From Minisyncoccota bacterium (GTDB lineage: Bacteria; Patescibacteriota; Minisyncoccia; Phycocordibacterales; UBA6065), in the NCBI GenBank assembly GCA_041661645.1, contig JBAZUA010000001.1, forward strand, positions 192,189-256,188: a DNA stretch of 64,000 nucleotides, written 5' to 3'. Shown piece by piece: positions 5,202 through 47,680 of the stretch. The position numbers were made by a program, and so were the translations under genes. A model generated the notes under the pieces. That model had not been told where the DNA came from. It made no database searches and saw only the letters and a program-made list of their open reading frames with translations. Each line of letters starts with the position of its first letter. Positions within the stretch are counted from its first letter, which is position 1.

Positions 5202-5639
5202 TTATTGTACCAAATCGACGGGACTTGAGCGTTTGGCTCTTAAGTAGTTTTCCATCAGTTCAATGTCTTTATGATCCTTTGGACGATTGTATTCCGTCTT
5301 AAATTTAATCAAATCATCAAGACAAATAAAAGGTATACCGCTAAAGTATTCCGCCTTGCTCAACAATTCTTGGAGAGTTGGATTAAAATTTCTACAATTA
5401 ACATCTGTATATAGTTCGATGTCCCCTTGTTTGAGATATATTTCTCCAGGCTTGTCTGGATATGTGTAATGCATGGTTTTCCATCCTTTATTCTTGCACC
5501 CTTCGAATATTTCTGGGGAGACAACAATATCAATATCATGAATTTCTTTGAGTCCATGCATCGCCATGATTCCACTACCCACCACAACGTACTGGTCCTT
5601 GGTTAGTTTTAGATTTTTGACTTGATTAATTATATCCAT
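5202..5639 (-). CDS. Lnu/LinA-like minimal nucleotidyltransferase (Pol-beta superfamily)
   Basis: GSGIMAMHGLKEIHDIDIVV provides the GS...DxD NTase motif, with an HxDIDI core as in LinA. The C-terminal IPFICLDDLIKFK resembles LinA IPCISKEAQLLFH. It is low-GC. The ORF-track N-terminal extension overlaps the tRNA and was trimmed to MDIINQ. Confidence 0.45.
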   Translation of the reverse strand: MDIINQVKNLKLTKDQYVVVGSGIMAMHGLKEIHDIDIVVSPEIFEGCKNKGWKTMHYTYPDKPGEIYLKQGDIELYTDVNCRNFNPTLQELLSKAEYFSGIPFICLDDLIKFKTEYNRPKDHKDIELMENYLRAKRSSPVDLVQ

Positions 5640-5671
5640 ATATTTTAACGCTTCTCGAGCGATGCTCTTGT

Positions 5672-5746
5672 TGGTTGCCAGGCAGGGATTCGAACCCCGA
5701 TTACACGCCTTCAAAGGGCGGCGTCCGACCATTAGACGACCCGGCA
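5672..5746 (-). tRNA. tRNA-Gln (anticodon UUG), CCA encoded
   Basis: Manually folded cloverleaf. Acceptor TGCCGGG/CCTGGCA, anticodon loop CTTTGAA, T-loop TTCGAAT. A 3' CCA is present. Confidence 0.75.
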
Positions 5747-5769
5747 ATATAGACCGACACCCGCTAAAC

Positions 5770-6801
5770 CTACTTCCCCTCCCCCGCCACGTCAAGAACG
5801 ACGAGCTCGAGGGGAAGCTCCTTTATCGGCGACACGCCCACTTGGTCGAAAGCGCCGAGCAGGGCGCGAAGAAGCTTTGAGTCGACGACTGCATTCTTGT
5901 TTCCAACGACGGCTTTGGCAAAAGATCGATCCTCCTCGCTCGCCTGGCTGCGGGCATCGGACTCCACGTCCATCTTCTCGAGGAGGGCGAGACGGGCAAG
6001 AGACACGACGAGCTCAAGGAAGAGCTTGGGGTCGAATGACCTGCGCTTCACCTCGGCGAGGGCGGCGAAGGCCTTGGGAGCGTCGTGCGAGGCTAAGGCC
6101 AGCACGAAGGCGCGCACGAATTCTGATTTTGGCGCGCCGGTCGCCTCCTCGACATGGGCGCGGGTGATCTTCTTCCCCTCCAGGCCGGCAATGCCGCGTT
6201 CCAATGCGCCATGCGCGTCGCGGAATGATCCCTCGCTCACCAGGGCAAGAAGCTCAGCGGCGGCAGGCTCGATCGAGAAACCTTCCTTCTGTGCCACGTC
6301 CACTATCAAATCCTTCAAGGTATCAAGGGTCGGCCTGCGGAACTCGAACACCTGACAGCGAGAGACGATGGTGTCGGGCAGCTTGTGCGACTCGGTGGTG
6401 GCAAGTATGAAGACGACATGCTTCGGCGGCTCTTCCAAAGTCTTCAAAAGTGCGTTGAAAGCCTCTTTCGTGAGCATGTGAACCTCATCGATGATATAGA
6501 CCTTGTACTTGGACTCGAACGGCAAGGTGGAGACCGCATCGCGAAGGGCACGCACGTCGTCGATGCCGCGATTAGATGCCGCGTCTATCTCGTAGGTGTC
6601 ATTGGCACTCGTGCCGATGGCTCGGGCGAAAATTCGAGCGATGGATGTCTTGCCTATGCCACGGGATCCAGCGAACAGATATGCGTGGGCGATGTTGCCG
6701 CTTTCCGCCACGGCCGAGAGGGCCTTGACCACGCTGCCCTGGCCGATGATCTCGGCAAAGGTCTGGGGTCGATATTTCCGGTACAGCACCTGATGTGTCA
6801 T
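5770..6801 (-). CDS. dnaX: DNA polymerase III subunit gamma/tau (short form)
   Basis: YRPQTFAEIIGQ..., Walker A GSRGIGKTS, and LDTL...IIDEVHML clamp-loader motifs. Confidence 0.85.
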   Translation of the reverse strand: MTHQVLYRKYRPQTFAEIIGQGSVVKALSAVAESGNIAHAYLFAGSRGIGKTSIARIFARAIGTSANDTYEIDAASNRGIDDVRALRDAVSTLPFESKYKVYIIDEVHMLTKEAFNALLKTLEEPPKHVVFILATTESHKLPDTIVSRCQVFEFRRPTLDTLKDLIVDVAQKEGFSIEPAAAELLALVSEGSFRDAHGALERGIAGLEGKKITRAHVEEATGAPKSEFVRAFVLALASHDAPKAFAALAEVKRRSFDPKLFLELVVSLARLALLEKMDVESDARSQASEEDRSFAKAVVGNKNAVVDSKLLRALLGAFDQVGVSPIKELPLELVVLDVAGEGK

Positions 6802-6827: not shown

Positions 6828-6853
6828 AAACGCCTCAATCGATTGAGGCGTTT
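6828..6853. repeat. Palindromic hairpin element AAACGCCTCAATCGATTGAGGCGTTT (copy 1 of 3)
   Basis: Perfect 13+13 palindrome. Related copies lie at 14648-14687 and 47648-47675. Confidence 0.6.
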
Positions 6854-6951
6854 CGGGCAAGAAAAAAGGCGACATGCGGAATGCACGTCGCCCGGGCCTG
6901 ATTGAGTCGCCAGCAAGTTATCCACGAGGGTACCGACGACAGACCCCAAAG

Positions 6952-7347
6952 TCAGTGGACGCCCTGCGAGCGAGGTCTCTTCCTGAGGGCCTCCGAAAGC
7001 GTGAGGCCGGGACCGAATTTCCTGCGCCTGGCACGGGCCATGGCAATGGGATCACTCAGCCTGACCGCAACCTTCTTCTGCTTGACCCGATACTGGAGAA
7101 TGTCGCCCTCGCCAACCTTGCGATAGAGGGTGTAGCTCAGCTGCCTCGATATCCTGCTATTCAGGATGTAGTCGATGACCTCCTGGCTATCGACCCGAAA
7201 GACATTCCTCTGCGCTGGCTCACCCGACGAGGGAATGACCGTCTTGCCCTCGCAGGCCTCCACCTTGTCGCCAAGACTGACAAAGGCGTCGTTCGTGAAA
7301 GCGTCGCCCGGCTCGAAATACCACGTGGTATTTGCTTGTTTCGTCAT
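6952..7347 (-). CDS. Hypothetical protein with a basic C-terminus
   Basis: Strong SD AGAGGAGGAAC lies 6 nt upstream of ATG 7347. Intrinsic terminators lie on both sides. No recognisable domain. Confidence 0.45.
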   Translation of the reverse strand: MTKQANTTWYFEPGDAFTNDAFVSLGDKVEACEGKTVIPSSGEPAQRNVFRVDSQEVIDYILNSRISRQLSYTLYRKVGEGDILQYRVKQKKVAVRLSDPIAMARARRRKFGPGLTLSEALRKRPRSQGVH

Positions 7348-11396: not shown

Positions 11397-12287
11397 ATGG
11401 ATTCCATACACGACAACGATTCAGGAACGCGCGAGATAGGCCCGGGAGATTTTCCCGGACTGCTCTCGTCTATGCCAAATCCGCCAGCCTTCCTGAGGAT
11501 TCGGGGCCCTCTGCCTCCCTCGACCGCGACGCACACCTACATAACGGTCATCGGATCGCGCAAATATACGGACTATGGCAAAGAGGCCTGCGAGACGCTG
11601 GTAAAGAGCCTGGCGGGATTGCCGGTGGTGATCGTCTCGGGCCTCGCCCTCGGCATGGATTCGATAGCACACAGGGCAGCCCTTAAATACGGAATGGGGA
11701 CCATCGCCATTCCCGGCTCGGGACTCGACGAGGAGTTCCTCTATCCGGCAAGCCATGTCAATCTGGCCCGCGAGATAGTGGCCGCGGGCGGGGCGCTCAT
11801 CTCTCCGTTTCCCGATGATACGCCCGCGGCCATCTGGACCTTCCCAAAACGGAACGCCATCATGGCAGGAATATCAAAGGCGACGCTCGTCATCGAGGCC
11901 GAGATAAAGTCAGGGACGCTCATCACCTCAAAGCTCGCCACCGACTATAACCGTGACGTATTCGCCGTACCCGGCTCCATATTCTCGAAGCAAAGCGAGG
12001 GGCCGCACATGCTCATACGCCTCGGCGCGACGCCCATCAGGAACGGGGACGACCTGCGCGACGCGCTCGGCTTCCCTCCCGAACGCGCATCAACGCCGAT
12101 ACACGAACGCACCGATCTCTCACCCGAAGAACTGCGCCTCGCCACGATCATCGCCGTCGAACCCGTGTCGCGCGAAGAGCTCTTCTCCCGCTTTGGCGGC
12201 GACATAAGCGACTTCAACGCCCTGATTTCCCTTCTCGAAATAAAAGAAGTGGCGGTAGAAAAAGAAGGGCGGATTATGCCCCTCTAA
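11397..12287 (+). CDS. dprA: DNA-processing protein DprA (Smf)
   Basis: Rossmann-like DprA core VIVSGLALGMDSIAHRAALKYGMGTIAIPGSGLD...VPGSIFS. Confidence 0.85.
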   Translation: MDSIHDNDSGTREIGPGDFPGLLSSMPNPPAFLRIRGPLPPSTATHTYITVIGSRKYTDYGKEACETLVKSLAGLPVVIVSGLALGMDSIAHRAALKYGMGTIAIPGSGLDEEFLYPASHVNLAREIVAAGGALISPFPDDTPAAIWTFPKRNAIMAGISKATLVIEAEIKSGTLITSKLATDYNRDVFAVPGSIFSKQSEGPHMLIRLGATPIRNGDDLRDALGFPPERASTPIHERTDLSPEELRLATIIAVEPVSREELFSRFGGDISDFNALISLLEIKEVAVEKEGRIMPL

Positions 12288-12317
12288 TTTGCCAAACTTT
12301 TTCCTTTCATGTAATAC

Positions 12318-14645
12318 TTGCCACAATATATGTCCAAACTACTCATAGTCGAGTCCCCGGCAAAGGCCAAAACCATCGGAAAATACCTCGGTGACGGCTA
12401 TACCGTAGTCGCATCCATCGGGCACGTCCGCGACCTCCCGAAGTCCAACAAGAAGGCCATCGACATCGACCACGGCTTCAAACCGCACTACGAGGTGTCC
12501 CCCGGAAAGGACTCCGTCCTGTCCGACATATCGCGCCTCGCCAAGAAGTCCGACGAAATACTGCTCGCGACCGACCCCGACCGCGAGGGAGAGGCAATCG
12601 CTTGGCACATCGCCGAGGCGGTGAACTTCGGGAAGAAGCCCGTCCGCCGCGTCGTGTTCCACGAGATCACCAAGGACGCCATCATCGAGGCGCTCACCCA
12701 CCCCCGCGACATAGACCAGAACCTGCGCCAGGCGCAGGAGGCGCGACGCGTGCTCGACAGGCTCGTGGGATACGACCTCTCGGGCGTCATCTGGAAGAAG
12801 GTTCGCTACGGCCTCTCGGCGGGCCGCGTCCAGTCCCCCGCCCTCCGCATCATCATGGAGCGCGAGCGGGAGATTCGTGCCTTCAAACCCGAGACCTATT
12901 GGACCATCTCCGCGGAAACCAAAACTGAGAAGACTTCGGCGAAACCGAGCGAGACGCTCGCCCTCAACTGCTCCATCGAGCCTCGCGAGAAGGCCGAGGT
13001 GGATCGCATACTCAAGACGGGCAAGGCCGAAGAGTGGGAGGTCGTATCGGTTGACGAGACCGAGGCCAAACGCAGCCCGAAGGCCCCCTTCACCACCTCG
13101 ACCCTTCAGCAGGCGGCCTCGACCCGCCTCGGCTATTCCCCATCGCGCACCATGTCCGTCGCCCAGAGACTCTACGAGGCGGGACTCATCAGCTACATGC
13201 GAACCGACTCGACCAACCTCTCGCAGCAGGCCATCGGGCAAATCGCCTCATATATAGAGAAGGAATACGGCAAGGCATCGGTCAACCTCCGCACCTTTAC
13301 CGCAAAATCAAAGAACGCCCAGGAAGCCCACGAGGCAGTCAGGCCAACGACCATATCCAAAAAGAGCGCGGGAGCGAATCCCGAGCAGGTCGCCCTTTAC
13401 GGGCTCATCTGGGCCCGCACCGTCGCGTCGCAGATGGTCGACGCCCGCATACTCCGCACCAAGATAGTGGCGAACACCGTCACCAAGAGCATTCCCGACT
13501 TCCATGCCAACGGCACCAGGCTCGTATCGACGGGCTGGCTCGCCGTGGACCCCGGCGCCCGAGGCGAGGACGTCGAGCTCCCAAAGGTCACCGCCGGAGA
13601 GAAGCTCGAACTCGTATCCCTCGACTCCCTCGAGAAGCAGACCGAGCCGCCTGGCCGATATTCCGAGGCGGGACTCATCAAGGAACTCGAGAAGCGCGGC
13701 ATCGGACGGCCCTCCACCTACGCCTCGATCCTTCGCACCCTCGAGGAGCGCGAGTACGTCACCAAGGAGAACAAGGCCCTCAAGCCGACCGACACGGGCG
13801 ACGTGGTGTCGTCATTCCTCGAGGAGCATTTCGGCCCGTACATAAGCGACACCTTCACCGCCGAGATGGAGGACAAGCTCGACAAGATCGCCGAGGGGCT
13901 GATGGGCTACGAGAAGACCCTCTCCGATTTCTACAAGCCGTTTTCGAAGGACGTGAAGATAAAGGACGCGCTCGACAAGGCCACAACCCTTGGCGATGCC
14001 GATGCAAAGTTCAAATGCCCCACCTGCGGATCATCCATGATTGTGAAGCTCGGGCGGGCCGGCAAGTTCCTATCGTGCTCCCGCTACCCTGACTGCGCCG
14101 GCGCGCTCATGCTCGACGGCACCGAGGTCCCGAAGGACCGCATTGTCGGCACGCATCCGGACACAGGTCTCGACATCACCGTAAAGTCCGGACGCTTCGG
14201 CCCGTACGTGCAGATGGGAGAAACGATCAAGGCCCCTAAAAAGCCCCGCAAGAAGAAGCCTACTAAAAAAGAGCTGGCTAAACTCGCAGCCGACCTTGCA
14301 GCGGGCATTGCCCCAGCCGCCGCCTCGACCAGCGCGGAACCAGAGATCGTCGGTCAGAAGGCAAAGATGGCATCCATTCCAAAGGAGATCGACCCGACCT
14401 CAATCACCCTCGCCCAGGCCGTTCACCTGCTCACCCTTCCCCGACGCCTCGGCACCCATCCCGTGACGGAAAAAGTAATCACCGCGAACATCGGACGCTT
14501 CGGACCCTACATAGTCCATGACGGAGACTTCCGCTCGGTCAAGAAGCCTGACGATGTGTATACCATCAGCCTCGGGCGCGCGCTCGACATGCTCAAGGAG
14601 GAAAAGAAGAAGCGTGGATGGAGGGCGAAGAAGAAAGCGGAATAA
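12318..14645 (+). CDS. topA: DNA topoisomerase I
   Basis: TOPRIM domain LLIVESPAKAKTIGKYL. Active-site region and C-terminal zinc ribbons (CPTCGSSM...CSRYPDC). The true start is probably the internal ATG near 12328. Confidence 0.9.
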   Translation: MPQYMSKLLIVESPAKAKTIGKYLGDGYTVVASIGHVRDLPKSNKKAIDIDHGFKPHYEVSPGKDSVLSDISRLAKKSDEILLATDPDREGEAIAWHIAEAVNFGKKPVRRVVFHEITKDAIIEALTHPRDIDQNLRQAQEARRVLDRLVGYDLSGVIWKKVRYGLSAGRVQSPALRIIMEREREIRAFKPETYWTISAETKTEKTSAKPSETLALNCSIEPREKAEVDRILKTGKAEEWEVVSVDETEAKRSPKAPFTTSTLQQAASTRLGYSPSRTMSVAQRLYEAGLISYMRTDSTNLSQQAIGQIASYIEKEYGKASVNLRTFTAKSKNAQEAHEAVRPTTISKKSAGANPEQVALYGLIWARTVASQMVDARILRTKIVANTVTKSIPDFHANGTRLVSTGWLAVDPGARGEDVELPKVTAGEKLELVSLDSLEKQTEPPGRYSEAGLIKELEKRGIGRPSTYASILRTLEEREYVTKENKALKPTDTGDVVSSFLEEHFGPYISDTFTAEMEDKLDKIAEGLMGYEKTLSDFYKPFSKDVKIKDALDKATTLGDADAKFKCPTCGSSMIVKLGRAGKFLSCSRYPDCAGALMLDGTEVPKDRIVGTHPDTGLDITVKSGRFGPYVQMGETIKAPKKPRKKKPTKKELAKLAADLAAGIAPAAASTSAEPEIVGQKAKMASIPKEIDPTSITLAQAVHLLTLPRRLGTHPVTEKVITANIGRFGPYIVHDGDFRSVKKPDDVYTISLGRALDMLKEEKKKRGWRAKKKAE

Positions 14646-14647
14646 GG

Positions 14648-14687
14648 CCACGAAAAACACCTCAATCGATTGAGGTGTTTTTCGTGG
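14648..14687. terminator. Perfect 20+20 palindrome CCACGAAAAACACCTCAATC|GATTGAGGTGTTTTTCGTGG (copy 2 of the repeated hairpin element); bidirectional terminator after topA
   Basis: Seen directly. Shares its core with the 6828 and 47648 copies. Confidence 0.6.
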
Positions 14688-14724
14688 ACAGATACGGACA
14701 GACATTCAGACGAAATCATACTTA

Positions 14725-14753
14725 TTGACAATAACCATATTTAGGTGTATAAG
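14725..14753 (+). promoter_or_regulatory. Sigma70-type promoter TTGACA-17-TATAAG placed 9 nt before ATG 14763
   Basis: The consensus -35 and -10 with 17-nt spacer end 9 nt before the start codon. There is no room for an SD, so the mRNA is likely leaderless. Confidence 0.55.
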
Positions 14754-14762
14754 CTATGACGA

Positions 14763-15068
14763 ATGCCCTCCTACAAAAAGCCATCTGATTCTAAAATAGT
14801 AGTCCGAGCCCTCCCGAAACCGTTTGCAGACGCGAACGGTTTCCAGGAATGGCTCCGCCAGCAGAAAGCGAACATCGCGCCGCGAAACCGCATTCCGGGA
14901 GCATGGCTCGACCAGCTCCCGAAGCTCGGACACGGCATCATCGTCCGCTGGGCGGACCACAAGCCGCTGCCGGTCCGTCTGGCGGGAGAACGAGTGTGGT
15001 TCAAGCCGTTCAAAAGCGGCCTTCCCCAGGGTCAGATGATAGCGCTTGAAATACCTCGTGCCGCCTGA
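14763..15068 (+). CDS. Small hypothetical protein, paralog 1 of a tandem triplet
   Basis: 101 aa. Shares an ...E.WL..Q... / GxGIIxRxI pattern with the next two ORFs. It has its own promoter and terminator. Confidence 0.5.
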   Translation: MPSYKKPSDSKIVVRALPKPFADANGFQEWLRQQKANIAPRNRIPGAWLDQLPKLGHGIIVRWADHKPLPVRLAGERVWFKPFKSGLPQGQMIALEIPRAA

Positions 15069-15092
15069 TCGGCCCTGGTCAGTGCCAGCATA

Positions 15093-15127
15093 AAGGGCGC
15101 GTTCCAAGGAACGCGCCCTTTCTTCTT
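15093..15127 (+). terminator. Intrinsic terminator (gggcgcgttcc-aagg-aacgcgccc plus tttcttctt)
   Basis: Seen directly. Confidence 0.55.
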
Positions 15128-15156
15128 GACTACGAGCGAGCTTGATGCAATATAGA
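15126..15156 (+). promoter_or_regulatory. Sigma70-type promoter TTGACT-19-TATAGA placed 8 nt before ATG 15165
   Basis: Same TTGACTA...gcaaTAT...ACACAAA architecture as the promoter before paralog 3. Confidence 0.45.
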
Positions 15157-15164
15157 CACAAACC

Positions 15165-15524
15165 ATGAACTTTGTATCCATAAAGACGACACCCATCAAC
15201 CTGCGCGACGTCGGGCGACTCGAGACATGGCTTCGAATGCAGAATCTGGAGGTGGCCCTCGATCAGGACATGCCCGAGGACTGGAAAGGCATCCTCGAGA
15301 TGAAGCACGGCTGCATAGTCAGGCGCATCATCTATGGGGAGCCGACAAAGCGCCAGAAATCAGTCGGATTTGAGCTGGTCCCGGGAGACATCATCCTCGG
15401 AACGATATCTCGGGAGGGCTATGTGCCCCTGATTTCCAATCACGAAATCCTCATACCCGAGGGACAGCTCGTGCTCGTCAAAAAGAGACGTCGAATCCCG
15501 AAGATTAACAAAGCCACCCCATAA
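15165..15524 (+). CDS. Small hypothetical protein, paralog 2 of a tandem triplet
   Basis: 119 aa. Recognisable similarity to paralogs 1 and 3 (LETWLRMQ..., GCIVRRIIYGEP). Confidence 0.5.
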   Translation: MNFVSIKTTPINLRDVGRLETWLRMQNLEVALDQDMPEDWKGILEMKHGCIVRRIIYGEPTKRQKSVGFELVPGDIILGTISREGYVPLISNHEILIPEGQLVLVKKRRRIPKINKATP

Positions 15525-15537
15525 GGGCGGCTTTTTC

Positions 15538-15568
15538 TTGACTAAGAAACTTTTTCGGGCAATATGTG
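15538..15568 (+). promoter_or_regulatory. Sigma70-type promoter TTGACT-19-TATGTG placed 6 nt before ATG 15575
   Basis: The leader is almost identical to the one before paralog 2 (gcaaTATrkrACACAAAy). Confidence 0.45.
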
Positions 15569-15574
15569 ACACAA

Positions 15575-15922
15575 ATGATCATCACACGAACCTTGTCCAT
15601 CATCGTCAAAACGCCGCAGGAACTCGAGAAGTGGCTCGACGAGCAATCCTTCGAGGGCAAACCCCTCAGACTCGCCACCAATCATGATGTCCCCGCAGAC
15701 CAGTATCACGAACTGATATCGAAAGGCAGGGGCATAATCGCCAATTTCATACCGATGAGCCACGGCGGCGGGCCGCGAAATCCGTCCCTGCCGCTCGGCT
15801 TCGAGCCTGTTGCGGGGAAAGCAAGGTTGAGCCTCATCAGCATCGGGACGGCCGTTCCCCTGCTGTTCGAGGTCTGGGGACCGCTCACCGAGGAGCAGGC
15901 GGTTGTCCTCATCGGCACATAG
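15575..15922 (+). CDS. Small hypothetical protein, paralog 3 of a tandem triplet
   Basis: The ORF track starts at GTG 15566, which overlaps the -10 box, so ATG 15575 was chosen. The protein is MIITRTLSIIVKTPQELEKWLDEQ...GRGIIANFIPM. A terminator follows at 15949-15980. Confidence 0.5.
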   Translation: MIITRTLSIIVKTPQELEKWLDEQSFEGKPLRLATNHDVPADQYHELISKGRGIIANFIPMSHGGGPRNPSLPLGFEPVAGKARLSLISIGTAVPLLFEVWGPLTEEQAVVLIGT

Positions 15923-16000
15923 CCCAATCCGGCACTTAGGAAAAAGCAAAGCCGCCCCACATCTGGGACGGCTTTTTTATATGCAACGGGCCTAACGGCT

Positions 16001-17026
16001 CTAGAGGGAAAAATTGTTTATCGAATACAGCCCCTCCTCGTTCTCACCCTCCTTTTTCTCCTCGACGGAACGATCGTCCGCGGGAGCAAGAGGCTCTTCA
16101 ACCGCTGGTTCGCCGGCCGCGACGACGTCAGACGCAACGACCGCGGCGGCAAGTGACGATACCTCGGGCTTCGCCACGGACGCGCCTCCCCTGTTCGTCT
16201 CCATGATGTTCATGATGGCCTTCAGGTCCTCGGGCGAGAAGAAGTCGATGGTGATCTTGCCCCCCTTCAATTTCTGCTCGATGGACACGCGCGTGCCGAA
16301 AGTCTCGGAGAGCTTCTGCTCGATCTCGATGATCTCGGGATCGAATGTCCTCTCCTTCTTGCGGGCCTTCTCGACGGCGATCTTGCGCGCGATCATCTCG
16401 GCCTCGCGGACGGTGAGGCGCTTGAAGATGATCTCCTTGAAGAGGGTTGACTGCTCCTCGGGACGATCGACGAGCATCATGAGCGGTCGGGCGTGGCCCT
16501 CGGATATCTTGCCCTGGGAGAGGGCCTCGAGTATGTCGGCGGGAAGCATCAGAATGCGAATCGAGTTCGAGACGTACTCGCGGGACTTGCCTATCTTTGC
16601 GGCGACTTGGACGTGCTTGAGACCAAACTCGGTGACGAGCTGCTGGAACGAGCGGGCGCGCTCGACGGGATTCAAATCCTCGCGTTGTAAGTTCTCGATG
16701 ATGGCAAGCTCGAGCTTGACCCGGGCGTCGTCGGTGTTGGCGCGGATGATGGCGGGAACCTGCTGGAGGCCGAGGAGCTTGGAGGCGCGGAGGCGTCGCT
16801 CACCGGAGATGAGCTCATACTCGACGGCAAGGCCGCCGTCCTCCTTCTGCTTTTCCGTGCGCGTCACGACGAGCGGCTGGAGCAATCCATACATGCGAAT
16901 CGATTCGGCGAGGGACGCGAGGGCGGCCTGATCAAACTCCCTGCGTGGCTGATAGGGGTTCGGGCTTATCTTGCTCGTCTCTATCCAGAATATGGAGTCG
17001 CCGGAGAACTGTGAGGGTTGTGACAT
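16001..17026 (-). CDS. parB: Chromosome partitioning protein ParB/Spo0J
   Basis: ParB box GERRLRA, HTH region, and an N-terminal ParB/Srx fold (PNPYQPRREFD). Confidence 0.85.
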   Translation of the reverse strand: MSQPSQFSGDSIFWIETSKISPNPYQPRREFDQAALASLAESIRMYGLLQPLVVTRTEKQKEDGGLAVEYELISGERRLRASKLLGLQQVPAIIRANTDDARVKLELAIIENLQREDLNPVERARSFQQLVTEFGLKHVQVAAKIGKSREYVSNSIRILMLPADILEALSQGKISEGHARPLMMLVDRPEEQSTLFKEIIFKRLTVREAEMIARKIAVEKARKKERTFDPEIIEIEQKLSETFGTRVSIEQKLKGGKITIDFFSPEDLKAIMNIMETNRGGASVAKPEVSSLAAAVVASDVVAAGEPAVEEPLAPADDRSVEEKKEGENEEGLYSINNFSL

Positions 17027-17140
17027 GTGTTGGTGGGTTATGCGCTGATTTTATCACACTCCCCGCCCCGCAAAAAATACCGCGCCCCTTAATTGAGAAA
17101 AAGGCAATTCTGGTGTAAGTTGGTGGGGCGCGGAACTCAT

Positions 17141-17224
17141 TGCCGGAGTGGCGGAACTGGTCAGACGCGCACGACTCAAAATCGTGTATCGAAAGGTGTG
17201 TGGGTTCGACTCCCACCTCCGGCA
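17141..17224 (+). tRNA. tRNA-Leu (anticodon CAA), long variable arm, no encoded CCA
   Basis: Acceptor GCCGGAG/CTCCGGC. Anticodon stem-loop CACGA-CTCAAAA-TCGTG. Variable arm TATCGAAAGGTGTGT. T-arm GTGGG-TTCGACT-CCCAC. Confidence 0.75.
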
Positions 17225-17225
17225 C

Positions 17226-17260
17226 AAAAAAGGCCCGTCTTCAGACGGGCCGATAAAAAA
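17226..17260 (-). terminator. Intrinsic terminator for the 17267..17506 gene
   Basis: ggcccgtc-ttca-gacgggcc hairpin followed by a T-run on the minus strand. Confidence 0.5.
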
Positions 17261-17266
17261 GAAACT

Positions 17267-17506
17267 TCACTGAACTCCCGGAGGACCATCGCCCCACTCC
17301 TTGAGCGCCTCAGCGTGAGCCGCCTCGAGCATCCTAATCAAATCAGGCATTCCGTTGACGCGCTTGAGGTCGATGCTTTCTTTAAGTCGCGCCCCGATGG
17401 CACGGACCTCCTCAACCCTTCCAACGCTTTTCTTTGACACCAGGACGAAAAAGGACGCCTTCCTGTGAGCAGGATCGGTTCTCTTGAACTCAACTTGAGA
17501 TAGCAT
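17267..17506 (-). CDS. Small hypothetical protein (79 aa)
   Basis: SD AGGAG lies 9 nt upstream of ATG 17506. A terminator lies downstream. Confidence 0.45.
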   Translation of the reverse strand: MLSQVEFKRTDPAHRKASFFVLVSKKSVGRVEEVRAIGARLKESIDLKRVNGMPDLIRMLEAAHAEALKEWGDGPPGVQ

Positions 17507-17574
17507 ACTAAGGTTCTCCTAAATAGCGGGTTATGGTTGCAAATCCCTTTCAGTCCTGATATTACTGGGTTCTC

Positions 17575-18504
17575 ATGAAAAGGCAAACGCCGAAAACCCT
17601 CCCCAAGATAATCGTCGTCCTCGGCCCCACCGCAACGGGCAAGAGCGACCTTGCCGTCCATCTCGCACTAAAATTCAACGGCGAGATCATTTCCGCCGAC
17701 TCGAGGCAGGTATACAGGGGCATGGACATCGGCTCAGGCAAGATAACCGAGACAGAGACGAAAGGTGTCCCCCATCACCTGCTCGACGTCGCCGACCCGC
17801 GCAAGAGGGTCTATAACGCGGACGAGTTTCGTAAGGATGGCGCCGCGGCTATCACCGACATACTGTCACGCGGGAGGCTCCCCATCATCGCGGGCGGCAC
17901 GGGCTTCTACATCGACGCGCTTGTCTCGGGCGAGGTGTTTCCCGAGGTCGCTCCCGACCAAAAGCTCCGTGACAGGCTCGCAAAGAAATCGGCGACGGCT
18001 CTCATGAAGGAAATCTCAAGGCTGGACCCTCGCCGTGCCAGGGCCCTCGATCCCCTGAACAAGGTCCGAATCATACGCGCCATCGAGATCGCCCGCACAC
18101 TGGGTTCCGTGCCCAAGGTTAAGTCACGAAAGCTCTACGAAACCCTCTACATCGGCCTCAACCTGCCGACGGAACGACTTCGCGAGAGGATACACCTTCG
18201 CCTGATGAAGAGAATGGAGGGAGGCAAGATGGTCCGCGAGATATCGCGCTTGCGCACGAGCGGCATGACCTGGAAGCGCCTCTTCGCGCTCGGCCTCGAA
18301 TACCGATACCTGTCACTCTATCTCCGAAAGAGGCTTTCAAAGGAAGAGATGCTCCTGGAACTCGAGAAAGAGATAGCCCAGTACGCCCGAAGGCAGATGC
18401 AATGGTTCAAGAGGAACGAGAACGTCACATGGCTCTCGCCGGGAGAGAACGCGAAAGCAGCCCAGAAGGCGAGAAAGTTCCTCTCGACCGACAAATCTTT
18501 ATAA
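17575..18504 (+). CDS. miaA: tRNA dimethylallyltransferase
   Basis: P-loop GPTATGKS. The motif segments DSRQVYRGMDIGSGK, LLDV, and ...IIAGGTGFY.... Confidence 0.9.
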   Translation: MKRQTPKTLPKIIVVLGPTATGKSDLAVHLALKFNGEIISADSRQVYRGMDIGSGKITETETKGVPHHLLDVADPRKRVYNADEFRKDGAAAITDILSRGRLPIIAGGTGFYIDALVSGEVFPEVAPDQKLRDRLAKKSATALMKEISRLDPRRARALDPLNKVRIIRAIEIARTLGSVPKVKSRKLYETLYIGLNLPTERLRERIHLRLMKRMEGGKMVREISRLRTSGMTWKRLFALGLEYRYLSLYLRKRLSKEEMLLELEKEIAQYARRQMQWFKRNENVTWLSPGENAKAAQKARKFLSTDKSL

Positions 18505-18565
18505 AGAATTTATCCATTCTTTCCCATTCGTGTGAGAAACTAGTGCAATCTCGACGAAACAGAAG

Positions 18566-19537
18566 ATGGAAGATTTCCGACCACACAAAAAGCCTCGGCC
18601 GTGTTCCTCGGCGCTCCAGGGACATTGGTGCGAACACGCAATCAAGCTCGTCCTTGTGGGTTCAATCATCATGCTCGCCTCGACCGACAGGCTCGTGTGC
18701 TGGAAACTAGCCACCGTGACGGCACTGGGCCTCTGGCTCCTGAGCAAGCATCTCGCTCGCAAAAACAAGGGACGGCAGGAAAAGGCGAAACTCGAGCAGA
18801 TGACCCAGCTTTCCAGGTTCGCGGAGCTCGGACGCATGTCCACGGGTTTGTTCCATGACCTCATCAGCCCGCTTTCCGCAATCAGCCTGACTCTTCAAGA
18901 AATAGAAACGAGCACGCACCCAGACATCGACGGCGTCAGGGAAAGGCTCGAAAGGTCTGTCATGGCAAGCAGGCGCATGGACCGTTTCATAACGTCAATA
19001 CGACAGAGGATACGATCGGACGAATTCAGGGAGGTGTTCCCGGCCAATACCATGATCGACAATACGGTTGGTCTCTTTCAGTACAAGGCCTCTAGGGAGG
19101 GTGTTGAATTGCGCGTCACCGCCAAACAGGACCTGAGCATATTCGGGAACGCCACGAAATTCTGCCAAGTGACGTCAAACCTCATATCGAACGCCATCGA
19201 TGCCTATGCAGGCGTCGAGAAAGACGAGAAAAGGGAAAGATATGTGTCGGTATCGCTCTCGCGGCGCAAAGGTAAAGCCATCATGGTCGTCGAAGACCAA
19301 GGGTCTGGCATAGAGCCAAGCGTGATGCCTCGGATATTTGAGCCATTCTTCACGACCAAGTCCCGAGAGACGGGGACAGGACTGGGACTCTGGATCACCA
19401 AGGAGATAGTCGAGGGCGAGTTCGGCGGGTCCATACGGGTAAAGAGCAGACCTGGATCGGGGACACGATTCGAGGTGATCATACGGAGGGAGAAGCCTGG
19501 AACTCAGACGGACTCCTCGACGAGCACCGTCTTGTGA
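18566..19537 (+). CDS. Sensor histidine kinase (two N-terminal TM helices, HisKA plus HATPase_c)
   Basis: H-box FHDLISPLSAI. N-box NLISNAIDA. G-boxes DQGSGIE and GTGLGLWI. Confidence 0.75.
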   Translation: MEDFRPHKKPRPCSSALQGHWCEHAIKLVLVGSIIMLASTDRLVCWKLATVTALGLWLLSKHLARKNKGRQEKAKLEQMTQLSRFAELGRMSTGLFHDLISPLSAISLTLQEIETSTHPDIDGVRERLERSVMASRRMDRFITSIRQRIRSDEFREVFPANTMIDNTVGLFQYKASREGVELRVTAKQDLSIFGNATKFCQVTSNLISNAIDAYAGVEKDEKRERYVSVSLSRRKGKAIMVVEDQGSGIEPSVMPRIFEPFFTTKSRETGTGLGLWITKEIVEGEFGGSIRVKSRPGSGTRFEVIIRREKPGTQTDSSTSTVL

Positions 19538-19731
19538 GGAGAATGATGCCCGCTCACGATCCGTATAACCCTCTTGGACGGCCCCAGATGGGCCCTCAGC
19601 AGCTTAAGCGCCCTCGCATTCGCAAGGCCTCGCTCGGGCGCGACGGAGACGGCCACGGCATATTCGCCGGCCTTCTTCTCCCTCACCGACTCTTTCTTCG
19701 TCTCCGTCGTGACCGTTATCTTTAGATGCAT
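19504..19731 (-). CDS. DUF167/YggU family protein
   Basis: GEYAVAVSVAPERGLANARALKLLRAHLG...VRIVSGHHSPHKTV matches the YggU (UPF0235) consensus. It overlaps the kinase 3' end convergently by 34 nt. Confidence 0.55.
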   Translation of the reverse strand: MHLKITVTTETKKESVREKKAGEYAVAVSVAPERGLANARALKLLRAHLGPSKRVIRIVSGHHSPHKTVLVEESV

Positions 19732-19735
19732 TGTG

Positions 19736-19806
19736 TGCGAGATGGGAGAATCGAACCCCCGCCCTATGCTTGGGAAGCACATGTTCTACCACTAAACCAA
19801 TCTCGC
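19736..19806 (-). tRNA. tRNA-Gly (anticodon CCC)
   Basis: Acceptor GCGAGAT/ATCTCGC. Anticodon loop TTCCCAA. T-arm GGGGG-TTCGATT-CTCCC. Confidence 0.75.
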
Positions 19807-19828
19807 AATACCCCTCTACGATATCACA

Positions 19829-21004
19829 TTATTTATCGGACTTCCCTTTGCCGCCCCTGCCGGACTCGCCCCTCCTCAAATACCTCTTTCCCTTCAGCTT
19901 TTCCGGCAACAAGCTCTCGGCGGAATACTTCTCATATCCCGCGCCGTAGCCGAGGCCCTTCATCAACTTCGTTGGCGCGTTCCTGATCTTGAGAGGTATC
20001 GGAAGATTGCCTGTGACCTTCACGTCGGCAAGAGCCTCGAAATAGGCCTCGTATGCGGACCTGTCCTTTGCCGCCGACGCGAGATAGGCAACGCCGTGAG
20101 CAAGGTTGATCGCCGCCTCGGGCAGCCCGATGCTCTCCACGGCCGCGAACACCGCATTCGCCACGACGAGCGCCGTCGGTTGGGCGAGTCCGACGTCCTC
20201 TGACGCGAATATGACCATGCGGCGGGCGATGAACTTCGGGTCTTCCCCGCCCTCGATCATGCGCGCCAGATAATACAGGGCCGCGTCGGCATCGCTCGCC
20301 CTCATGCTCTTTATGAAGGCGCTTATGGTGTCGTAATGTTCGTCGCCCTTCTTGTCGAAGCGTATGAAAATTTGTTCGAACGTGCTTTTCAGAGTCTCGA
20401 GAGTCACCGTCCCATACAGACGCTTGGCGTTCTCGAGGGCCGTCAGCGCCATGCGCGCGTCGCCGTTTGCGAGATTGACAAGCCAGTCAAGCGCAGCCTT
20501 CGGCAGCTTTATCTTCGTCCTCTTCACGATCGCCTCGATGTCCTTCGTCTCGAGACTCTTCAGCACGAACACTCGCGAGCGCGAGAGGAGTGCGGGAATG
20601 ACTTCGAAACTCGGGTTCTCGGTCGTGGCGCCGATGAGGGTTAGTCGTCCGCTCTCGACAAAGGGCAAAAGAAAGTCCTGTTGGGCCTTGTTGAAGCGAT
20701 GTATCTCATCGAGGAACAGGAGCTTGGGACGCTGATCGAGCAGATCAGTCTCGGACATGATGCGCTTGATGTCCTCCTTGCCCGCAGAAACGGCAGAAAG
20801 CTCGTACAGGCGCGCATCCAGTGCCTTTGCGTATATTCGGGCCAACGTGGTCTTTCCCACGCCTGGAGGCCCCCAGAGAATGAAGGAAAGCAGGTGCCTG
20901 TCGTCGATTGCCTTGCGCAAAGGTTTTCCGACGCCCACCAAATGCTCCTGGCCGATGAACTCGGCGAGGGACTGCGGTCTGATTTTTGATGCGAGGGGTT
21001 CCAT
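19829..21004 (-). CDS. rarA: Replication-associated recombination protein A (AAA+ ATPase)
   Basis: Walker A GPPGVGKTT. Walker B LFLDEIHRF. The MgsA C-terminal domain is present. Confidence 0.85.
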   Translation of the reverse strand: MEPLASKIRPQSLAEFIGQEHLVGVGKPLRKAIDDRHLLSFILWGPPGVGKTTLARIYAKALDARLYELSAVSAGKEDIKRIMSETDLLDQRPKLLFLDEIHRFNKAQQDFLLPFVESGRLTLIGATTENPSFEVIPALLSRSRVFVLKSLETKDIEAIVKRTKIKLPKAALDWLVNLANGDARMALTALENAKRLYGTVTLETLKSTFEQIFIRFDKKGDEHYDTISAFIKSMRASDADAALYYLARMIEGGEDPKFIARRMVIFASEDVGLAQPTALVVANAVFAAVESIGLPEAAINLAHGVAYLASAAKDRSAYEAYFEALADVKVTGNLPIPLKIRNAPTKLMKGLGYGAGYEKYSAESLLPEKLKGKRYLRRGESGRGGKGKSDK

Positions 21005-35120: not shown

Positions 35121-35360
35121 CTAGACCCCCAGGGTTCCGGCGATGATCCTTATGATGCCCCACACCGAGATCATGATGAAGAGGCCGATGGTGCTGTAGA
35201 GGATGTGATTCGCCCCATCGGTCCTGGCCGTGCTCTCGCTCGAGTTACGCACATAGCTATACACCCCATAGACGAAATACGCGATGGCTACCGCAAAGAT
35301 AAGCTTGATCGCGGGATCAACCACGAACTCAAAAAAATCCTGGACTATTTGTGCATCCAT
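35121..35360 (-). CDS. TrbC/VirB2-like pilin family paralog P1 (two-helix core only, no signal peptide)
   Basis: 79 aa with two hydrophobic helices separated by a short polar loop (NSSESTARTDGAN). C-terminal helix STIGLFIMISVWGIIRII matches the family motif. Confidence 0.45.
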   Translation of the reverse strand: MDAQIVQDFFEFVVDPAIKLIFAVAIAYFVYGVYSYVRNSSESTARTDGANHILYSTIGLFIMISVWGIIRIIAGTLGV

Positions 35361-35374
35361 AGGGACGAGACTTG

Positions 35375-35743
35375 CTAGATGTTAGGGATCGAAGGAAGCT
35401 GCTTCTGGACGTTGTCCGCCCTGTTCTGGGTATCGAGACCGAAGGTGCTGACGAGGATGTTGACGAGTCCCCAGACCGAGATCATGACGAAGAGGCCGAT
35501 GATTCCGTAAATGATCTTGTCCTTTGCCGCCGCCTTTGCCTCCTCGCTTCCCGACATCACGTACTTTGCGATGCCGTAGATGAAGTACACGACCGCAGCC
35601 GCGATGATGAGGGGAAGAACGGTGTTAAGTATCTTGCTGATGAAACCGAATATGCTGAACACATCCGTTATCTTGGTGGTGCCCTGGGCCGCCGCCATGA
35701 ACGGAAGGGCGAACGATGCTGCGATAATGCCGATTTTTTTCAT
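35375..35743 (-). CDS. TrbC/VirB2-like pilin family paralog P2
   Basis: Signal peptide MKKIGIIAASFALPFMAAAQG. Helix 1 LPLIIAAAVVYFIYGIAKYV. Loop MSGSEEAKAAAKDK. Helix 2 IIYGIIGLFVMISVWGLVNIL. Confidence 0.55.
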   Translation of the reverse strand: MKKIGIIAASFALPFMAAAQGTTKITDVFSIFGFISKILNTVLPLIIAAAVVYFIYGIAKYVMSGSEEAKAAAKDKIIYGIIGLFVMISVWGLVNILVSTFGLDTQNRADNVQKQLPSIPNI

Positions 35744-35850
35744 ACGTTTTTCTAAATTCCTTATAATCTGCTAATGCCGTTATGCCCCTTGATTATACCA
35801 ATAAAACCAGATATGGCATAGGGCATGGGGATAAGATTCCGTACCTGCCC

Positions 35851-36246
35851 CTAGTCTGGTATGAGGGTTGGTATGTCGACCGAGTCAGCATCCTGACTGA
35901 GTCTGAAGGTGTTGTCGAGGATGTTCACGAAACCCCAAATAGACATCATGACGAAGAGGCCTATGACGCCGTAATAGATGGTCTTCTTCCCCTCCTCCCT
36001 CTTCTCCTCGCTCGAGAGCATCTTGAAGGCGCCGATAACCACATAGACGACGGAGAGGGCGACAACGAGATATACGAAGTAGTCAAAGAATCCGATGATG
36101 CAGTTCACAAGATTCTCGGCCCCAAACTCGAGCTGCCCGCAGGCGCTTACGGAACCCGTGTTGGCATTGGCGGCCAGCACGGCAAATGGAGTGGCCATCA
36201 CCGCCAGCAGAGAAAGGACGACCGCGCCCATGAATGCTTTTTTCAT
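35851..36246 (-). CDS. TrbC/VirB2-like pilin family paralog P3 (Cys pair)
   Basis: Signal peptide. C-x12-C (SACGQLEFGAENLVNC). Helix-loop-helix with [38 protein letters not shown]. Nearly identical core to P6. Confidence 0.55.
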   Translation of the reverse strand: MKKAFMGAVVLSLLAVMATPFAVLAANANTGSVSACGQLEFGAENLVNCIIGFFDYFVYLVVALSVVYVVIGAFKMLSSEEKREEGKKTIYYGVIGLFVMMSIWGFVNILDNTFRLSQDADSVDIPTLIPD

Positions 36247-36248
36247 CG

Positions 36249-36728
36249 CTATATTGATGTGGTTACGAACTTGTTAATGACGGTCCTGACGACCTCGGTT
36301 ATGACATTCGCCCCGATGAGGAGAATCGCGCCGACGATCGTGTACTTGAACGTCTTCTTGGCATCCTCCAAAGCATCGGGCTTCCCCTGCGCTATGACAA
36401 ACTTGAATCCCGATATGATGAGGAAGAGTGCGATGACCGCATAGCTCAGGCTGTAGACGAAGTTGATGACGAGGTAGAAAAAGTCGGGAATGGTCTTCAC
36501 CTTGTCGCCGAGGGGATTCTCGAGCTTGACTGATGCCGAGGTGTCCTTCAGCGGAACCTTGGCCGGTGTCACTGGTGTCCCGCTGGTCTGGAGGGGCGTG
36601 CCCGTGGTCTGCAGGGGTGCCGAAGTCGTCTGAACGGGCGTTCCTGTGGTTTGGGTGTCAGCAGCCAGGGCGAGAACCGGCACGGCGACCGAGACAAGAA
36701 GGGCGAAGGCGATGATGTGATGCTTCAT
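36249..36728 (-). CDS. TrbC/VirB2-like pilin family paralog P4 with a Thr/Pro-rich repeat linker
   Basis: Signal peptide. Repeats TTGTPVQTTSAPLQTTGTPLQTSGTPVTP. Then helix-loop (KPDALEDAKK)-helix. Confidence 0.5.
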   Translation of the reverse strand: MKHHIIAFALLVSVAVPVLALAADTQTTGTPVQTTSAPLQTTGTPLQTSGTPVTPAKVPLKDTSASVKLENPLGDKVKTIPDFFYLVINFVYSLSYAVIALFLIISGFKFVIAQGKPDALEDAKKTFKYTIVGAILLIGANVITEVVRTVINKFVTTSI

Positions 36729-40081: not shown

Positions 40082-40711
40082 CTAGAACGTCCTCTCGAGG
40101 GGTGTCGGGGTCATCGGTGCGTCGCCTGAAAGCTGGAAGGTGCCCTCAAGGATATTGACGAATCCCCATATGGACATCATGACGAAGAGGCCGACGATGC
40201 CGTAGATGATGGCGTTCTTCCCCTCCTCCCTCTTCTCCTCGCTCGACAGCATCTTGAACGCCCCAAGGATCGTGTAGATCACGGTGAGGGACACGATGAG
40301 ATATATGAAATAATTAATGTACACGATGATGCAGTCGACGACGCCCACAAACCCGCCGTCGGTGAGGCTGTCGCAGGCTGTACTACCGCCCCTACCGCCG
40401 CCCGAGCCGAGTGAGAAAGTCGAGTTGTCCATCTTCGAGTTCGAGAAATCGTTGGTGGGTATGATTGCCTGCCCGACAGGCTCCGGGGCGGTGCTGGTGA
40501 AAACAGTCCCGCCCTCCGCCGTACCAGCCGTATCCACAGGAATGAACTGCGCGGATGTGGCCGCTGGCACCGAAAGAATGACGAGAAGCGATGAGACGAG
40601 GGCGAAGCGTGATATTGAAGTCATAGTGGTTTCATTATAGCAAAGAAAAAGCGGGACATCTGCCCCGCTTTCCCACATATGTGAATTTATCCGAAACTTA
40701 GAGACAAACAA
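40082..40711 (-). CDS. TrbC/VirB2-like pilin family paralog P6 (Cys pair, Gly-rich linker)
   Basis: Signal peptide. [64 protein letters not shown]. The start overlaps the gyrA 3' end by 14 nt. Confidence 0.55.
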
Positions 40712-47647: not shown

Positions 47648-47680
47648 TAAAACACCTCAACCCATTGAGGTGTTTTACTT
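47648..47680 (+). terminator. Terminator hairpin AAAACACCTCAA-CCCA-TTGAGGTGTTTT plus acttt (copy 3 of the repeated element)
   Basis: Seen directly, after rpsA. Confidence 0.55.

Follow-up and report, generated by a model that had tools for sequence, protein, structure and literature searches.

The window analysed here is a stretch of 64,000 nucleotides (64 kb) from contig JBAZUA010000001.1 of a Minisyncoccota bacterium. Between topA and parB it carries three small open reading frames (ORFs), O1, O2 and O3. Sequence comparison with related genomes assigns them, with high confidence, to a group-restricted orphan family of autonomous cassettes, with a conserved type B (O2), a hypervariable type A (O1) and a diverged, strain-specific copy (O3). 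As a whole, the locus is best explained by single-gene cassettes of this family that would encode A and B binding modules and of which the A cassette would be exchanged; we assign this explanation a probability of about 50%. The A cassette, a sharply bounded hypervariable island amid highly conserved housekeeping genes, is the most interesting feature of the locus.

The three ORFs lie head-to-tail on the + strand: O1 at 14763–15068 (type A, 101 aa), O2 at 15165–15524 (type B, 119 aa) and O3 at 15575–15922 (115 aa from its ATG; an alternative GTG start at 15566 would yield 118 aa). This agrees with the region and the protein lengths given in an earlier note on this DNA, which also took the three for paralogs. 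BLASTP supported the relationship directly for O1 and O2 (E = 1e-6) and for O2 and O3 (E = 2e-6), while O1 and O3 did not match significantly (E = 0.73). Profile-profile comparison closed this gap: the A-type and B-type profiles matched over their full length (97.3%, E = 2.7e-11), and O3 matched both the B profile (97.4%, E = 9e-12) and the A profile (90%, E = 1.4e-6). With the orthologs included, homology of all three ORFs is thus secure, at an identity among the trio copies of no more than about 31%, and on these alignments they are paralogs of one uncharacterised family. Among the shared motifs proposed earlier, an ELExWL.EQ-type motif is real as LExWL..Q, with W and L invariant throughout the family, and the GxGII(A/V) segment is real as G(H/C/R)G(I/C)I(V/A). 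The proposed acidic stretch is present only as a DQDMPEDW-like sequence.

A six-frame codon-usage score was best in the annotated frame for O1, O2 and O3, and the GC content at codon positions 1, 2 and 3 is gene-like (O3, 0.59/0.43/0.76; reference genes, 0.59/0.39/0.80). Differences between B-type orthologs are concentrated at codon position 3, and their dN/dS values of 0.13–0.24 indicate that B is under purifying selection. Because of the codon scores, the position-3 differences and these dN/dS values, we regard all three ORFs as genuine genes. We dismissed two long antisense ORFs (14754–15308 and 15542–15949, - strand): both run across terminators and promoters, score worse in codon usage and are a by-product of the GC3-rich sense frame.

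O1–O3 gave no significant match in Pfam, NCBIfam, PHROGs or PADLOC, and none of the 15 family members matched Pfam at E ≤ 10. Sub-threshold matches of O3 to Tox-PL-2 (E = 0.07) and NUFIP1 (E = 0.39) both lie well below the cut-offs. Word-indexed searches of 5.8 billion proteins returned the trio itself together with P0002 and P0004, joined by A-type relatives in the third search. When the family profile was run exhaustively with HMMER against 1.84 billion cluster representatives, 12 matches emerged at E ≤ 0.001, of which nine are proteins of 98–115 aa. The other three (P0009–P0011) are repeat/TPR proteins whose score is the sum of many weak repeats, and they were rejected. None of 50,697 phage records matched O2 in a tblastn search, and pattern scans of GTDB genomes, JGI metagenome contigs (also with O3 alone) and IMG/VR gave no new relatives, re-finding only the genome that encodes P0012. 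A literature search found no description of the family. The family is thus, at the sequence level, new and uncharacterised, as the earlier note had suspected when it failed to recognise it.

Seven related loci (L001 and L005–L010, on Paceibacterota/Parcubacteria contigs) were recovered. All have the gene order serS-dprA-topA-[family]-parB, so the association with topA and parB, which the earlier note had suggested looking for, holds in every one of them as well as in the window. No further copies were found elsewhere in the window or in the recovered loci, and on present sampling the family is restricted to a narrow group of Paceibacterota. An all-against-all matrix splits it into two types. 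Type A comprises O1-like proteins of about 100 aa which lack a stretch of about 24 residues. O2-like proteins of about 110 aa, with orthologs in all seven other loci, make up type B. A is followed by B in L001, L005, L006 and L007, and B by A in L008; L009 and L010 carry B only, and the window carries A, B and O3. The A+B pair is therefore present in six of eight genomes, at a copy number of 1 to 3. Unrelated genes are inserted in the topA-parB gap of L005 and L009.

O3 shares 23–35% identity with every B-type protein, and nothing closer to it was found in the protein or locus searches. By this measure O3 is a B-type copy that has diverged strongly, and this strain is the only one in which it was seen. 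In L005 the equivalent slot (5563–6142) is taken up by a prepilin-like gene (170 aa) of the opposite strand, and right after the B terminator of L005 an orphan TTGACA may be left over from the promoter of a third cassette. In L009 a partial duplicate of the parB 3' end (6878–7048) lies upstream of the single B-type gene, P0012. The public start of P0012 (ATG at 7047) is probably wrong, and the ATG at 7017 restores both the N-terminus MISLLSLPRD... and the usual promoter distance.

The two types evolve in sharply contrasting ways. Between the window and L005 the amino acid identities are 95% for SerS, 91% for TopA, 89% for ParB, 60% for B and 34% for A, and in general TopA and ParB are 72–91% identical between genomes whose family proteins share 20–60%. 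Over 15 genome pairs the identity of A is flat at 20–39%, as opposed to 32–87% for B. A sliding-window comparison of L005 and L007 gave DNA identities of 85–90% at the topA end, 27–60% over the A cassette and 80–98% over B, and the drop takes in the promoter and terminator of the A cassette. The comparison of the window with L001 has the same steps, with about 35–50% DNA identity over the A cassette and about 80% in the flanks.

Between L005 and L007, 61 of 94 third codon positions differ in A and 31 of 109 in B. The divergence of A thus includes synonymous sites, which argues for replacement of alleles rather than merely faster protein evolution. The dS of the B gene for this pair is about 0.5 and predicts a DNA identity of about 63%, to be compared with the 27–60% observed over the A cassette; by this estimate the divergence of A is beyond neutral drift since the L005/L007 split. 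The pattern points to divergent alleles having replaced the A cassette, either through recombination between conserved flanks or from an ancient polymorphism, and diversifying selection possibly acts on A additionally. Three further public samples (ERZ27249449, SRR18595301 and SRR6484324) have yielded contigs that correspond to window positions 12079–20391, 14658–17192 and 14770–17032 and match the window at 100% over 2.2–8.3 kb. The same strain thus recurs across datasets, and the divergence of A is not a matter of ongoing hypermutation.

The idea put forward in the earlier note that three copies serve dosage control of one function does not fit these data: the copies share at most 31% identity, a pair of distinct A and B types is kept, and the hypervariability of A contrasts with the purifying selection on B. 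Orphan immunity-gene arrays of polymorphic toxin systems are an example of hypervariable cassettes of small genes flanked by conserved sequence. The trio resembles such arrays in its small tandem paralogs, varying copy number, sharp divergence borders and conserved flanks. However, it has no adjacent toxin gene and no match to an immunity or defence family, and the likeness is one of evolutionary pattern only. In uncultured organisms the A cassette may serve as a tractable marker of recombination and of some antagonistic or recognition interaction.

Each gene of the trio looks like its own predicted transcription unit. The -35 boxes proposed earlier were found as TTGACA at 14725 and TTGACT at 15126 and 15538, located 38, 39 and 37 nt 5' of the respective ATGs. 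In the predicted O1 promoter (14725..14753, + strand) a 17-nt spacer leads to TATAAG, which ends 9 nt before the ATG, and every A-type ortholog has TTGAC[AT] at equal distance. The predicted promoters of O2 (15126..15156, +) and O3 (15538..15568, +) combine TTGACT with a 16-nt spacer and CAATAT; the promoter of the O2 ortholog in L001 is nearly identical (TTGACTACG..GCTTGGTGCAATATG). The earlier note had assigned TATrrG-like -10 boxes to all three genes. TATAAG, TATAGA (O2) and TATGTG (O3) do exist, but the latter two require 19-nt spacers, and the orthologs favour CAATAT. In an upstream alignment of 15 family genes from eight genomes, which includes the L009 gene with its corrected start, TTGAC[AT] occurs about 37–43 nt 5' of the start codon in 15 of 15 genes. 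A C-A-n-n-A-T hexamer (CAATAT, CATAAT, CAGTAT and similar) is kept 16 nt past the -35 box and about 9–13 nt from the ATG. A generic promoter scanner called none of the three promoters because its -10 rule is strict.

The -10 candidates end 6–11 nt before the three ATGs. Under standard sigma-70 geometry this implies predicted transcription starts 0–6 nt before the ATG, so the trio genes would be leaderless or nearly so, with no room for a Shine-Dalgarno (SD) sequence, as had been proposed. GGAG, GAGG or AGGA motifs are not found upstream of the three ATGs. The leaders of O2 and O3 are indeed alike, as the earlier note had observed, although duplication of the regulatory regions, its explanation, is not supported as the sole cause: orthologs elsewhere keep the same -35, -10 and pre-ATG elements, and functional constraint thus explains much of the likeness. 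An out-of-frame ATG is located 7–8 nt 5' of the A-type start in the window (14756–14765), L001 (516–526) and L005 (4830–4840). The L001 version, ATGAACCCATGA, is a mini-ORF of three codons, and its stop codon shares nucleotides with the main ATG. This upstream ATG is absent from L006–L008 and hence probably incidental.

A GC-rich hairpin with a T-run, the signature of a rho-independent terminator, follows each of the three genes. The O1 terminator (15092..15128, +; -24.3 kcal/mol) has a 13-bp GC-rich stem followed by TTTCTTCTT and abuts the next -35 box. The O2 terminator (15510..15543, +; -13.0 kcal/mol) overlaps the last codons of its gene and has a TTTTT fused to the -35 box of O3; the scanner called it on the - strand. 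The O3 terminator (15948..15980, +; -15.9 kcal/mol), also called by the scanner, has a TTTTTT run and faces the 3' end of parB. Downstream of topA, directly after its stop codon, a perfect palindrome (14647..14687, +; -29.1 kcal/mol, z = -8.9) is a candidate bidirectional terminator with no free trailing T-run, the T-run lying within the stem. For each of these four hairpins, 0 of 200 shuffles were as stable. The T-runs pass straight into the following -35 box (GGCTTTTTCTTGACT), and this fusion is repeated at orthologous loci. The stem after topA is kept in L001, L006, L007 and L008. The palindrome AAC(A/G)CCTCAA(T/C)C(G/C)ATTGAGG(T/C)GTT occurs three times in the window (6829–6852, 14656–14679 and 47651–47674) and may represent a small repeat element or a terminator module put to use more than once. 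The promoter-ORF-terminator structure of the cassettes is kept in the seven related genomes, in line with the independent transcription of the three copies that had been proposed.

The leaderless layout that the earlier note described for the trio turned out to be the norm in this organism. We surveyed the start signals of 54 non-overlapping ORFs of ≥150 aa over the whole window. An SD-like motif (GGAG, GAGG or AGGA at -18 to -5) was found for 1 of 54 ORFs, compared to 14% of random positions, and a -10-like hexamer ending 5–13 nt before the ATG for 25 of 54, compared to 10.5% at random. Starts without SD and with little or no leader are, on this survey, the default of the genome and not a feature of the locus, and the genome appears to rely largely on such mRNAs. 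What distinguishes the trio from most other genes in the window is its full consensus -35 box: TTGAC[AT] at 35–43 nt 5' of an ORF start occurs at only nine sites, three of which belong to the trio.

In the 'group C' of GeneMarkS-2, leaderless genes have a Pribnow box at a distance of about 10 nt from their start (PMC6028130). With -10 candidates that end 6–11 nt before the ATG and no SD, the trio agrees with this organisation, for which a -10 box about 6–10 nt upstream is expected. Group C bacteria (Actinobacteria, Deinococcus-Thermus; PMC6028130) likewise have a Pribnow-like box about 6–13 nt before the ATG and no SD, whereas the host here is a bacterium of the candidate phyla radiation (CPR). 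A literature search found no description of CPR bacteria at the level of transcription start sites and none of leaderless translation in them. The window offers clean in-silico evidence of a Paceibacterota genome that is nearly devoid of SD sequences and has -10 boxes beside its start codons. This bears on gene calling and start-site annotation in CPR metagenome-assembled genomes (MAGs), as the visibly mis-started P0012 illustrates. Much of the architecture described here is thus the default in this organism, and nothing reported here would greatly surprise a specialist in CPR genomics.

An AlphaFold2 prediction of O2 based on an alignment of 12 sequences reached a pLDDT of 88.5 and a pTM of 0.78, with four of five models at ≥85; an earlier run with five sequences was unusable (pLDDT 54). 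The predicted structure is a compact α/β domain with β-strands at residues 4–8, 28–30, 50–58, 72–82, 85–88 and 102–107 and helices at 16–25, 38–45 and 62–66. The predicted order is strand, helix, short strand, helix, long strand, short helix, β-hairpin and C-terminal strand. In three independent structure searches C-type-lectin-like domains (CTLDs) were at the top each time and were the only structural resemblance, with matches that are not significant. The canonical CTLD order has strands and helices compatible with a succession of strand, helix, short strand, helix and a sheet closed by a C-terminal strand, and is compatible with the prediction for O2. Like the family proteins, CTLDs such as the Link module, the intimin/invasin C-terminal domain, Mtd, TvpA and AvpA have a size of about 100–120 aa. 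The C-type-lectin (CLec) fold, which is the usual target of diversity-generating retroelements (DGRs), tolerates massive sequence variation (PMC5006420), and it is to such variation-tolerant CTLD binding scaffolds that we liken the family proteins. At the sequence level, none of the 15 members matched a CTLD profile of Pfam (Lectin_C, FGE-sulfatase and related), and the family profile, searched against the sequences of the PDB, had just three matches, all at chance level and none of them to a CTLD.

Only hydrophobic or structural residues (W, L, P, A, F and G) are invariant in the family, and the aligned members lack a conserved polar or catalytic constellation. The net charge is not conserved, with pI values from 4.8 to 10.8, and no signal peptide, membrane segment or N-terminal hydrophobic stretch was recognized by eye. 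Because of the nature of the invariant residues and the range of pI values, a non-enzymatic, soluble binding domain seems the most economical reading of the model. Three of six A-type proteins end in -RAA, -IAA or -LAA (window 15057–15065, L001 818–826, L008 2648–2656) and that of L007 in -LVA. These tails resemble ssrA-like ClpXP degradation tags, and the A proteins could be short-lived.

Based on these results we propose the following scheme. Each cassette consists of a predicted sigma-70-type promoter (TTGACW, 16–17 nt, -10 box), a predicted leader of about 0–6 nt with no SD, the ORF and a hairpin terminator. A and B are usually paired between topA and parB, with O3 as an extra copy in this strain. 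The proteins would be non-enzymatic binding or recognition domains with an α/β fold remotely like a minimal CTLD. The A cassette would represent an old polymorphic set of alleles, exchanged by recombination between conserved flanks. Such a pattern is usual for an antagonistic or recognition interaction, be it immunity, defence, symbiont-host or phage contact. Only tentatively do we go further and regard the proteins as modules for recognition or binding that take part in an interaction of antagonistic or partner-specific kind, to which A would contribute the exchangeable element of specificity.

Several points weigh against this scheme. The functional assignment rests on inference, the fold model was derived from only 12 sequences and signal peptides were judged absent just by eye. 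Where transcription starts, how efficient the terminators are and whether the genes are expressed are matters of prediction, and the missing free T-run of the topA hairpin makes read-through from topA possible. Part of the A hypervariability could reflect weak constraint on a young orphan gene. Finally, none of the adjacent genes is of toxin, defence or phage type, and neither PADLOC nor PHROGs gave a match. If only the modest part of the exchanged-cassette scheme is true, the locus adds one more group-specific, uncharacterised small-protein family to those of the CPR, with a confident predicted fold.

The alternative that survives best, albeit an unlikely one, is that the trio are weakly constrained, lineage-specific filler orphans without a specific role and that A varies by neutral drift. 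Hypothetical small proteins are abundant in CPR genomes, and the very narrow distribution, the copy number of 1 to 3 and a codon adaptation of 0.52 (0.53–0.74 in housekeeping genes) would all suit such filler. However, B is under clear purifying selection and a confident, compact fold was predicted from as few as 12 sequences. In six genomes the A ORFs are intact and, although their divergence is saturated, have kept the core residues of the family and their consensus promoters, and the A divergence between L005 and L007 exceeds the neutral expectation (27–60% versus about 63% DNA identity).

Less probable is a role of the trio as accessories of chromosome topology or segregation, either as binders or modulators of TopA or ParB or as small nucleoid proteins. 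This would account for the topA-[family]-parB position, strictly kept in eight of eight genomes, and for the short basic C-terminal tails of many B-type proteins (e.g. KKRRRIPKINK, KEKRR). But the whole serS-dprA-topA-parB-miaA block is syntenic in this narrow group, which makes adjacency little informative, and unrelated genes have entered the same gap in L005 and L009. A partner of proteins as conserved as TopA and ParB (72–91%) would not be expected to change as fast as this family (20–60%). The net charge is not conserved either, with pI values of 4.8 to 10.8. Moreover, each gene has its own promoter and terminator and forms no operon with topA or parB.

Slightly less probable still, in our view, is a two-partner module of toxin-antitoxin-like or immunity type made up of A and B, in which A would be the partner that is labile and varies. 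The A+B pair in six of eight genomes, the size of both proteins (about 100 aa), the -AA, -LAA or -VA ends of several A proteins, reminiscent of ssrA-type degradation tags, and the hypervariability of A, which immunity proteins often share, are what such a module might look like. Yet A and B are homologous to each other and not the unrelated partners of a type II system. They have separate promoters and terminators in eight genomes instead of a shared autoregulated operon; L009 and L010 carry B alone, and the order is inverted in L008. No toxin-antitoxin, immunity or defence model of Pfam, NCBIfam, PHROGs or PADLOC was matched, and no toxin domain is adjacent.

Diversification of the trio by a DGR, which is common in CPR bacteria, with the three proteins as variable targets of C-type-lectin fold, would agree with the hypervariability of A and with the CTLD structures at the top of all three fold searches (the CLec fold being the usual DGR target, PMC5006420), but it is very improbable and within the window essentially excluded, for no direct repeat of ≥30 nt joins 14700–15990 to the rest of the 64 kb as a template/variable repeat pair would, topA and parB as immediate neighbours leave no adjacent reverse-transcriptase gene, the variation spans the whole A cassette including promoter and terminator and not adenine-templated C-terminal sites, and this strain shows no differences (100% identity) among its copies from four samples.

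A more far-reaching version of the exchanged-cassette scheme, which we hold to be rather improbable, would see here a DGR-free recognition system of the CPR, in which a minimal CTLD-like family with a conserved B and a swappable, hypervariable A, to which a diverged third copy is added in this strain, faces a fast-evolving partner such as a phage or host factor. The exchange would take place across the flanks provided by topA and the B promoter, perhaps by natural transformation. The gene dprA is located just upstream of topA.

The immediate surroundings of the trio are topA (12318/12330–14645, +) on its 5' side, parB (16001–17026, -) on its 3' side and convergent with O3, a tRNA gene and miaA. 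TopA, ParB, MiaA and a histidine kinase were identified as neighbours by the Pfam assignments of an identical public contig. In NCBI, O1, O2 and O3 belong to a Candidatus Paceibacterota MAG and are entered as hypothetical proteins (MFA6158238.1, MFA6158239.1 and MFA6158240.1). No Rfam RNA family was found in the intergenic parts, the tRNA at 17142–17224 being the only real match, and around the locus the GC skew does not switch as it would at an origin.

A second array of small tandem paralogs is located on the - strand of the same compact genome, at 35121–36728 and 40082–40711. Its four or five small genes encode proteins with signal peptides that match the Pfam family T4SS_pilin (PF18895, E = 1e-9 to 1e-12), and stretches of ~200 nt are repeated within it at 75–79% identity. 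The trio is like this array in being small tandem paralogs, but the pilin proteins differ in their signal peptides, membrane segments and known Pfam family and are unrelated to the trio in sequence.

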